Source of the DNA: a virus
DNA: 38,413 bases
Virus genome (UHGV): UHGV-0319989
Reading direction: 5' to 3' (one strand)
Shown here piece after piece: positions 38,191 through 38,413 of the stretch. Position 1 is the stretch's first letter; each line of letters begins with the position of its first letter. Both the position numbers and the translations under genes were made by a program. The notes below the pieces were generated by a model that worked only from the letters and a program-made list of their open reading frames with translations, ran no database searches and was not told where the DNA came from.

Positions 38191-38218
38191 TTGACAATGT
38201 ACCTTTGAGATACATAAT
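38191..38218 (+). promoter_or_regulatory. PL-like early promoter with overlapping operator
   Basis: TTGACA (38191-38196), 16-bp spacer, CATAAT (38213-38218); the spacer is the operator-like 19-mer ATGTACCTTTGAGATACAT. Confidence 0.55.
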
Positions 38219-38273
38219 GTACCCAAGCGAAACAACGAACAGGCAGGACGCCCACGAAGTAGCCGCCTGGGGC

Positions 38274-38413
38274 TGAACCGCCCCGGAAATCCTGGAGACT
38301 AAACTCCCTGAGAAAGAGGTAAACAGGATGACTAAAAATACTCGTTTTTCCCCCGAAGTCCGTCAGCGGGCGATTCGTATGGTTCTGGAAAGTCAGGATG
38401 AATATGACTCACA
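38274..38413 (+). mobile_element. Left end of an IS3-family insertion sequence (IS629/IS1203-like), continues beyond the window
   Basis: Terminal sequence TGAACCGCCCCGG... and the orfA start MTKNTRFSPEVRQRAIRMVLESQDEYDS, as recalled for IS629-group elements. Confidence 0.7.
38328..38413 (+). CDS. IS3-family transposase OrfA, 5' partial
   Basis: ATG at 38328 with GAGG upstream; N-terminal HTH of an IS3-family OrfA; truncated by the window edge. Confidence 0.7.
   Translation, partial: MTKNTRFSPEVRQRAIRMVLESQDEYDS

Follow-up and report, generated by a model that had tools for sequence, protein, structure and literature searches.

The insertion sequence IS1203/IS629 is abundant in Escherichia coli O157:H7, in other STEC, and in Shigella. 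IS629 has been described as the main driver of diversification among the Stx and other prophages of O157:H7, and its reported prophage sites are roi, a lysozyme gene, a methyltransferase gene, and intergenic positions (PMC4587872). According to published work (PMC3851460), N, cII, and cIII are all missing from the phages SfV, SfII, and SfIV. In N-less lambdoid phages, the put RNAs (putL and putR of HK022 and the putL-like RNA of HK639) serve as cis-acting processive antiterminators (PMC9378689). A recent paper that names no such RNA speculates that N-less phages of the ST64B/LLS type may use a put-like RNA (PMC12315714).

The DNA analyzed here, called the window throughout, is the whole stretch of 38,413 nucleotides of virus genome UHGV-0319989. 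Judged from its homologies, it is almost the whole of an SfV-like prophage residing at thrW, from which only the early-left arm is missing. Its modules run in the order att-adjacent cargo, tail, head, terminase, lysis, Q, replication, cro, cI, and PL, and its structural half shares ~97-98% identity with SfIV, SfII, SfV, and E. coli phage vB_EcoM-720R4. Phage homology begins at position ~109, and thus only ~108 bp of the window lie outside the prophage. No complete tRNA was detected by ARAGORN, as is expected given that the thrW sequence near this end is a duplicated fragment. Relatives are also integrated at thrW, adjoining proA, and the open reading frames (ORFs) of the window equal theirs in length, such that the remainder of the prophage appears complete.

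The window has the same cro gene, ymfL/CP76, terminator, PL, and leader as SfV, SfIV, SfII, and ST64B, and the same integration at thrW. In those phages, however, the leader is unbroken and is followed by orf33 or by yfdP-yfdQ-yfdR, with xis-int farther along, whereas in the window an insertion sequence splits the leader. The cargo beside att is also different, being gtr in these phages and an orphan 314-aa ORF (613-1557) in the window. This orphan has no match in Pfam, NCBIfam, or PADLOC. It lies beside a gene for an ImmA/IrrE-like (capP/RmrA-like) protein at 3420-3953, and the att-adjacent slot as a whole (window 1-5500, especially 613-1557) is a variable hotspot. Where Shigella phages have gtr genes, this slot is filled in relatives by retron Ec48, an S1 peptidase, an AAA ATPase, and other genes.

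Another accessory locus of the window is a two-gene moron at 28882-31271 (plus strand), which is antiparallel to the late genes and is situated between Q (31264-31623) and the lysis genes. It encodes an NA37/YejK-like nucleoid-associated protein of 388 aa and a second protein of 408 aa, and the pair also occurs in relatives L015 and L017. Matches to the NCBIfam “DS1_1/DS1_2 antiphage” models are weak, at 98 and 100 bits against cut-offs of 330 and 315, and PADLOC gave no match for this moron.

Insertion sequences are common visitors in related prophages. L002 (E. coli MS8345) carries three IS3-family copies, one of them ~500 bp 3′ of the same PL, and has a truncated replication gene. An IS3 element follows yfdR in L003, an IS1 element lies in yfdQ of L007, an IS66 element occupies the dam region of L013, and an IS4/IS5-type element follows Q in L021. 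In L015, cI and the integrase gene are both truncated.

Table. Features of the window at its att end and around the interrupted leader, with intact leader copies of related records in the last line
Feature	Coordinates	Strand	Basis
3′ part of tRNA-Thr (thrW), att core	~128-172 (~109-172)	minus	Read directly
Operator-like palindromes, cI/cro intergenic region	37393-37409, 37443-37459		TGTACC-N5-GGTACA, 1 and 0 mismatches
cI-type repressor, LexA/S24 autocleaving type, ymfK/cohE-like, SfV immunity group	37477-38151	+	Pfam Peptidase_S24, E 1.5e-26
Intrinsic terminator after cI	38163-38189	+	Hairpin 38163-38182, 8-bp stem GAACCTGC/GCAGGTTT, then T run
PL-like early-left promoter	38191-38218	+	TTGACA 38191-38196, 16-nt spacer, CATAAT 38213-38218
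OL1 operator-like site, between -35 and -10	38198-38214		OR motif, 1 mismatch
OL2 operator-like site, over the inferred start	38218-38234		OR motif, 2 mismatches
Leader RNA, 5′ 45 nt (P1 5′ strand, invariant core GGCAGGACGCCCACGAAGUAGCC, P2 5′ strand, first 3 loop bases)	38229-38273	+	Covariance model R1
Predicted target triplet GGC, to recur at the right IS end	38271-38273		Inferred from the GTG duplication at the L004 copy
IS1203/IS629 left end (IRL 38274-38298, leader, orfA codons 1-28 at 38328-38411)	38274-38413	+	140/140 identity
Intact leader copies	L001 6330-6400; L003 15955-16025; SfV L025 3006-3076; ST64B L026 2497-2567; ZF40 L029 1499-1569		

The end of the window is recognizable by its sequence as the left end of IS1203/IS629, an element of the IS3 family. 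It starts with TGAACCGCCCCGGAAATCCTGGAGAC, and its 140 bases are 100% identical (E 6e-67) to copies annotated as “IS3-like element IS1203 family transposase,” such as that of pO157. This part of the window is matched at ≥99% by 569 plasmid records. The ATG of orfA is followed to give 28 visible codons, and these align to positions 1-24 of Pfam HTH_Tnp_1 with an E-value of 9.7e-4 and 19.8 bits, which is under the cut-off of 24.1. As a reference for the complete element we used a copy at L004 778-2087, which is 1310 bp long and identical to the window across the visible 140 bases. Its ends are imperfect inverted repeats (TGAACCGCCCCGGAAATCCTGGAGA versus TGAACCGCCCCGGTTTTCCTGGAGA, 22/25, of the form TG...CA, terminating in ...GGTTCA) flanked by a 3-bp duplication, GTG. 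Its orfA matches HTH_Tnp_1 with an E-value of 2.4e-12, its orfB matches the rve/DDE domain with an E-value of 9.3e-28, and the full copy reaches 316 bits with NCBIfam transpos_IS3, for which the cut-off is 160. Related copies are annotated with a frameshift.

Thus, the assignment to the IS3 family made in an earlier note on this DNA is borne out by the perfect identity, and the visible part, including IRL and the start of orfA, is indistinguishable from that of the described 1310-bp element of the IS3 group. The coordinates given in the note are 38191-38413. Of these, 38191 is the first base of a -35 hexamer, and the element itself starts at 38274. The window holds 11% of IS1203/IS629, with IRR lying beyond its end, and contains no second copy of the terminus.

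It might be asked whether the junction is an assembly artefact, a chimeric contig end at which the prophage was joined to a repeat. The window does end 140 bp into a multi-copy repeat, as is typical of draft contigs. However, the prophage sequence gives way to the IS precisely at the outermost base of the IS terminal repeat (TG...), which is the pattern left by real insertions. Because the IS terminus is respected in this way, we regard a chimera as highly improbable and treat the junction as a genuine insertion.

The DNA immediately upstream of the insertion carries the elements of a repressor-controlled early-left promoter. The repressor encoded in the window is identical at 223 of 224 positions to the cI protein of Shigella phage SfV, whose annotation includes the same terminator after cI. 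Past this terminator, and codirectional with cI, lies a sigma-70 promoter that matches 11 of 12 consensus positions and is conserved in relatives; transcription from it would start at approximately 38225. The operator motif TGTACC-N5-GGTACA has five matches in the window against 0.97 expected, and none of 100 shuffles reached five. Because this motif is common to the promoter and to the cI/cro region, the PL/OL label is justified on sequence grounds for the promoter at 38191. The earlier description of this promoter as PL-like is therefore upheld, given its position 3′ of cI, its direction, and the overlapping operator-like sites that also occur at OR. The arrangement resembles lambda PL-OL, which likewise is a strong sigma-70 promoter past the cI terminator and shares operators with OR. 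The lambda promoter drives an operon ending in xis/int, and in all relatives the order and orientation of the genes agree with such an operon.

There are also differences from the N-nutL region of lambda. No boxA/boxB pair is present between PL and the insertion point, no N gene is found, and only two operator-like sites are recognized. The distance from the end of the -10 element (38218) to the first IS base (38274) is 56 nt, in agreement with the ~55 bp estimated previously, and orfA points in the same direction as PL. The insertion point, 38273/38274, is non-coding and lies at least 113 bp before any ORF annotated in relatives. In these relatives, PL is followed by a non-coding leader, a variable moron, a conserved non-coding stretch, yfdP-yfdQ-yfdR, small genes, xis, int, and the tRNA. 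The variants of the moron include a 68-aa ORF with an opposite-strand ECs1072-family gene, a 67-aa zf-C4_ClpX protein, the 98-aa SfV orf33 product, and other opposite-strand ORFs. In all relatives examined, xis and int lie by the att site on this side, which is where the note had expected them to be.

The note also expected an N-like gene at this position, and an element that had replaced such an antiterminator gene, or cut it off from PL, would be the corresponding explanation of the locus. What speaks for this explanation is analogy with lambda, P22, and similar phages. Against it, no match to the N family was found among the first genes after PL in relatives, and these first genes vary. Moreover, because SfV, SfII, and SfIV are published as N-less (PMC3851460), no N-like gene is to be expected after PL in this group. 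The breakpoint itself is non-coding, at the distance from annotated ORFs given above. We therefore consider an interrupted or displaced N gene to be a very improbable account. Instead, comparison with relatives indicates that the IS interrupts a conserved non-coding leader.

The conserved block is ~64-71 nt long and is modeled here as an element of 71 nt, of which the IS separates the 3′ 26 nt from the 45 nt that remain next to PL. It is 80-98% identical among SfV, SfII, SfIV, ST64B, phiNP, Pantoea AH07, Yersinia YeP1-3, Pectobacterium ZF40, and Klebsiella and Providencia phages. At least nine genera are spanned, including Escherichia, Shigella, Salmonella, Klebsiella, Yersinia, Pectobacterium, Pantoea, Citrobacter, and Providencia, and the repressors of these phages differ. 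In every case the block is found ~100-120 nt past the stop codon of the repressor gene, and none of the GenBank phage records annotates it. Relatives that have another repressor and another PL share with the window only the 40 nt preceding the breakpoint (38234-38273), whereas their own sequences remain conserved beyond it. This near-invariance across genera argues that the leader is probably needed.

Covariation was assessed using 87 distinct copies collected from IMG/VR and phage records via an exact anchor in the invariant core, a segment that lies outside the columns tested for pairing. The closing helix, P1, joins columns 6-11 with 64-69, and its pair 7:68 is GC in 56 copies, AU in 26, and UA in 1. 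An internal hairpin, P2, joins columns 38-42 with 55-59. Its pair 40:57 occurs as GC (35), CG (26), UA (20), and AU (5), and its pair 42:55 as UA (36), GC (28), AU (15), and CG (5). Across the 87 copies, 96.6% of the cells are paired, compared to 87.1% in shuffles (none of 500 reached the observed value) and 21-51% when the strands are slid by 1-3 columns. A different pairing proposed by RNAalifold alone, in which the 3′ UUCG pairs with the second CGAA (columns 27-30), was set aside, and columns 8-11 were preferred as the partner of the UUCG, since columns 7 and 68 covary (GC 56, AU 26).

The IS falls between columns 45 and 46, within the apical loop of P2. Covariance model R1 scores the copy in the window at 47 bits and intact relatives at 93-98 bits. 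Cells with G-U pairs outnumber those with C-A, which would be the wobbles on the other strand, and this weakly favors an RNA that is read in the direction of PL. For 64 of the 92 distinct upstream (immunity) types, the end of the best -10 element lies 17-20 nt ahead of the core of the leader, which makes the leader the very 5′ end of the PL transcript. No match to Rfam 15 was found on the leader, at the gathering threshold or at E-values up to 10, nor on the IS part of the window. A literature search with the core sequence returned unrelated matches only. Thus, the leader RNA is conserved, structured, and apparently undescribed.

The described RNAs that most resemble this leader are the put elements, which act in cis to let terminators be read through and depend on the zinc-binding domain of the RNAP beta′ subunit. 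Like putL, it begins a few nucleotides from the PL start, is ~70 nt long, is structured, has conserved unpaired bases, and occurs in N-less phages. In contrast to put, which forms two side-by-side stems, the leader has a closing helix that encloses an internal hairpin. It is also a single-copy element, with no second copy on the PR side of the window or elsewhere in each phage, whereas HK022 has both putL and putR. We considered homology to HK022 putL/putR and to the putL-like and “M3-like” RNAs of HK639, and detected no similarity in sequence or structure, the put motifs seen in HK022 and HK639 being absent from the element. Model R1 likewise gave no match in HK022 or HK639 at E-values up to 10 with filters off.

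Several features of relatives lie just beyond the position that corresponds to the insertion. In a subset of them (L001 6405-6445 and the same segment of L002, L010, L011, L016, L018, L020, and L023), the sequence AAAAAAGCGCCCTACAGGACGCTTAGCTCTTTAACAA comes after the leader. Taken on the opposite strand, it reads as a strong intrinsic terminator, probably that of the opposite-strand moron, and on the PL strand it presents an rrn-like boxA (GCTCTTTAACAA) after a hairpin. Such a boxA-like sequence occurs in this one subset only, ~75 nt beyond the insertion point. Upstream of yfdP, a stretch matching Rfam STnc100 was observed at L003 16562-16784 (47.2 bits, gathering threshold 47) and in ST64B at L026 2855-2973 (35 bits). 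This stretch, which is beyond the end of the window, is labeled “frameshifted hypothetical protein” in some genomes.

The interval from the element to yfdP in relatives comprises several hundred bases and holds only small or opposite-strand ORFs. Simple scans of ST64B and L017 predicted no intrinsic terminator between the leader and yfdP. We had entertained the notion that the leader belongs to a short sRNA ending at an intrinsic terminator just past it, and this was rejected given that no such terminator is found in ST64B or L017. In SfV, a terminator is annotated inside the early-left operon.

The site of insertion was also compared with its uninterrupted counterparts. The 374 bases before 38274 are 100% identical in hundreds of complete E. 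coli genomes, in which the sequence continues without interruption as ...GCCTGGGGC/ATATGAAGTCCAGGATGATTCG... (the slash marks the insertion point). More than 20 uninterrupted relatives were fetched, and in each the alignment to the window stops exactly at 38273. A megablast search of 5,426 complete E. coli genomes with 37900-38413 gave no single-piece match across the junction. Only two records cover at least 80% of this segment, with an IS that is 93.6% similar located ~500 bp farther downstream. Exact-pattern scans of genome, metagenome, and viral contig collections likewise did not find the left junction. The rarer 187-aa YmfL variant of the window is present in 16 contigs, none of which has an IS beside cI. 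The exact replication protein of the window occurs in more than 10,000 blocks and is thus uninformative as a marker, and none of the contigs looked up has an IS beside cI. The junction is absent from these collections, and many other copies match the IS part exactly; taken together, this points to an event that is probably recent and specific to one strain.

With the first 140 bp of the IS in view, we take a simple insertion as our assumption. The right junction would then be predicted to read ...CCGGGGCGGTTCA-GGC-ATATGAAGTCCAGGATGATTCG (ATATGAAGTCC...), followed by yfdP...int-thrW. An exact-pattern scan for this junction, written as IRR plus 3-4 nt plus ATATGAAGTCCAGGATG, found no instance in metagenome contigs. 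One alternative is that the IS marks the boundary of a deletion or rearrangement, which arose after the insertion or by IS1203 recombination, and that the early-left region including xis and int was lost or moved to leave an anchored remnant. The window stops inside the IS, leaving contiguity with the early-left arm out of view, and both IS traffic and truncations are frequent in this prophage family, as in L002 and L015. The missing right junction could be read in the same way. However, the left junction is equally absent from every collection searched, and for this reason the absence of the right junction is uninformative. The rest of the prophage also seems complete, with ORF lengths as in relatives. 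On balance, we judge a deletion boundary to be unlikely, and we retain simple insertion as the working interpretation.

The junction has a further peculiarity, in that it forms a near-perfect palindrome at 38267-38286 (CTGGGGC/TGAACCGCCCCGG). Its target flank, CCTGGGGC, looks like the complement of the terminus of the IS itself (CCGGGGCGGTTCA), perhaps because some IS3-family elements tend to insert beside sequences similar to their own inverted repeats.

Our preferred interpretation, which we hold to be likely, is that IS1203/IS629 transposed to a position 56 bp 3′ of the PL -10 element in an N-less SfV-like prophage at thrW, splitting the leader and having the effects proposed below. PL and the first 45 nt of the leader are now fused to the left end of the IS, and orfA starts ~103 nt past the inferred start of transcription. 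The 3′ 26 nt of the leader and the early-left genes now lie at least 1.31 kb off, if they are still present at all. The split leader RNA would no longer be able to fold. In the lysogen, repression of PL by cI should leave little transcription reading into the IS. Upon SOS induction, RecA-stimulated cleavage of cI through its S24 domain would allow PL transcripts to enter orfA/orfB, such that transcription of the transposase would become coupled to prophage induction. Expression of the early-left genes, including xis and int, would be expected to drop owing to IS polarity, the 1.3 kb to be crossed, and destruction of the leader. On the PR side, the functions of cro, replication, Q, lysis, heads, and tails are left intact. 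The likely outcome would be a prophage that is inducible and still kills the cell yet excises poorly. Both the loss of early-left (xis/int) expression, by which the note supposed that the prophage might be locked in or crippled, and the control of the transposase by the phage repressor are plausible suggestions.

We also considered whether read-through transcripts protect orfA from translation by folding back, through a hairpin at the junction (GGGGCUGAACCGCCCC) and pairing of AUCCUG with CAGGAU across the start codon. The structures predicted for these transcripts do not significantly exceed shuffled sequences in stability (z-scores of -1.7 to +0.3), and for this reason we offer no verdict on translational control of orfA.

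It could be argued that the insertion is nearly neutral, with read-through from PL or other promoters serving the early-left genes and the prophage remaining both inducible and excisable. Polarity of insertion sequences is not absolute, and int or xis may have promoters inside the operon. Carrying IS903 in the PL operon does not keep HK022 from being a viable phage, and Stx phages with one to three copies of IS629 are still recovered as phages (PMC4587872). In HK022, the IS903 element (26601-27657; L033 5602-6001 and L034 1-658) lies in the early-left operon 3′ of putL and nun. On these precedents, an IS in the early-left arm need not be crippling. In the window, however, the IS lies upstream of the whole operon and destroys a leader that is nearly invariant across genera. 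The stretch from leader to yfdP, with its small and opposite-strand ORFs and no predicted intrinsic terminator, is expected to be Rho-sensitive unless it is protected. A near-neutral insertion thus seems doubtful to us, and impaired early-left expression remains the interpretation we favor.

The IS insertion is an ordinary event of a known kind, although the site itself is absent from the collections searched. The IS629 cases described in prophages (PMC4587872) involve the same element in lambdoid prophages, in genes or in intergenic DNA. They differ from the present case in that none is described between PL and the early-left operon, and in the host, since the prophage that carries the IS here is an SfV-like myovirus at thrW rather than an Stx phage. 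Movement of IS629/IS1203 into prophages is a documented and common route of their diversification and decay. At most, the copy described here explains a possibly non-excisable SfV-like prophage in one strain, and it could couple transcription of the transposase to the SOS response.

The conserved, structured 5′ leader is the only part of the locus with real potential for novelty. Because the interval from leader to yfdP holds only small or opposite-strand ORFs and the SfV operon has an annotated terminator, some protection of early-left transcription against termination is plausible. We put forward, as a tentative possibility that we do not favor over other roles, that this RNA is the early antitermination or anti-Rho device of N-less SfV/ST64B/LLS-type phages, analogous to put and unrelated to it, and that it has been naturally knocked out in this prophage. 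If so, there would be two kinds of cis-acting antiterminator RNA, put and this leader RNA, the latter letting RNA polymerase cross a long untranslated, terminator-containing early-left leader. The strain from which the window derives would then be a ready-made mutant of the leader RNA.
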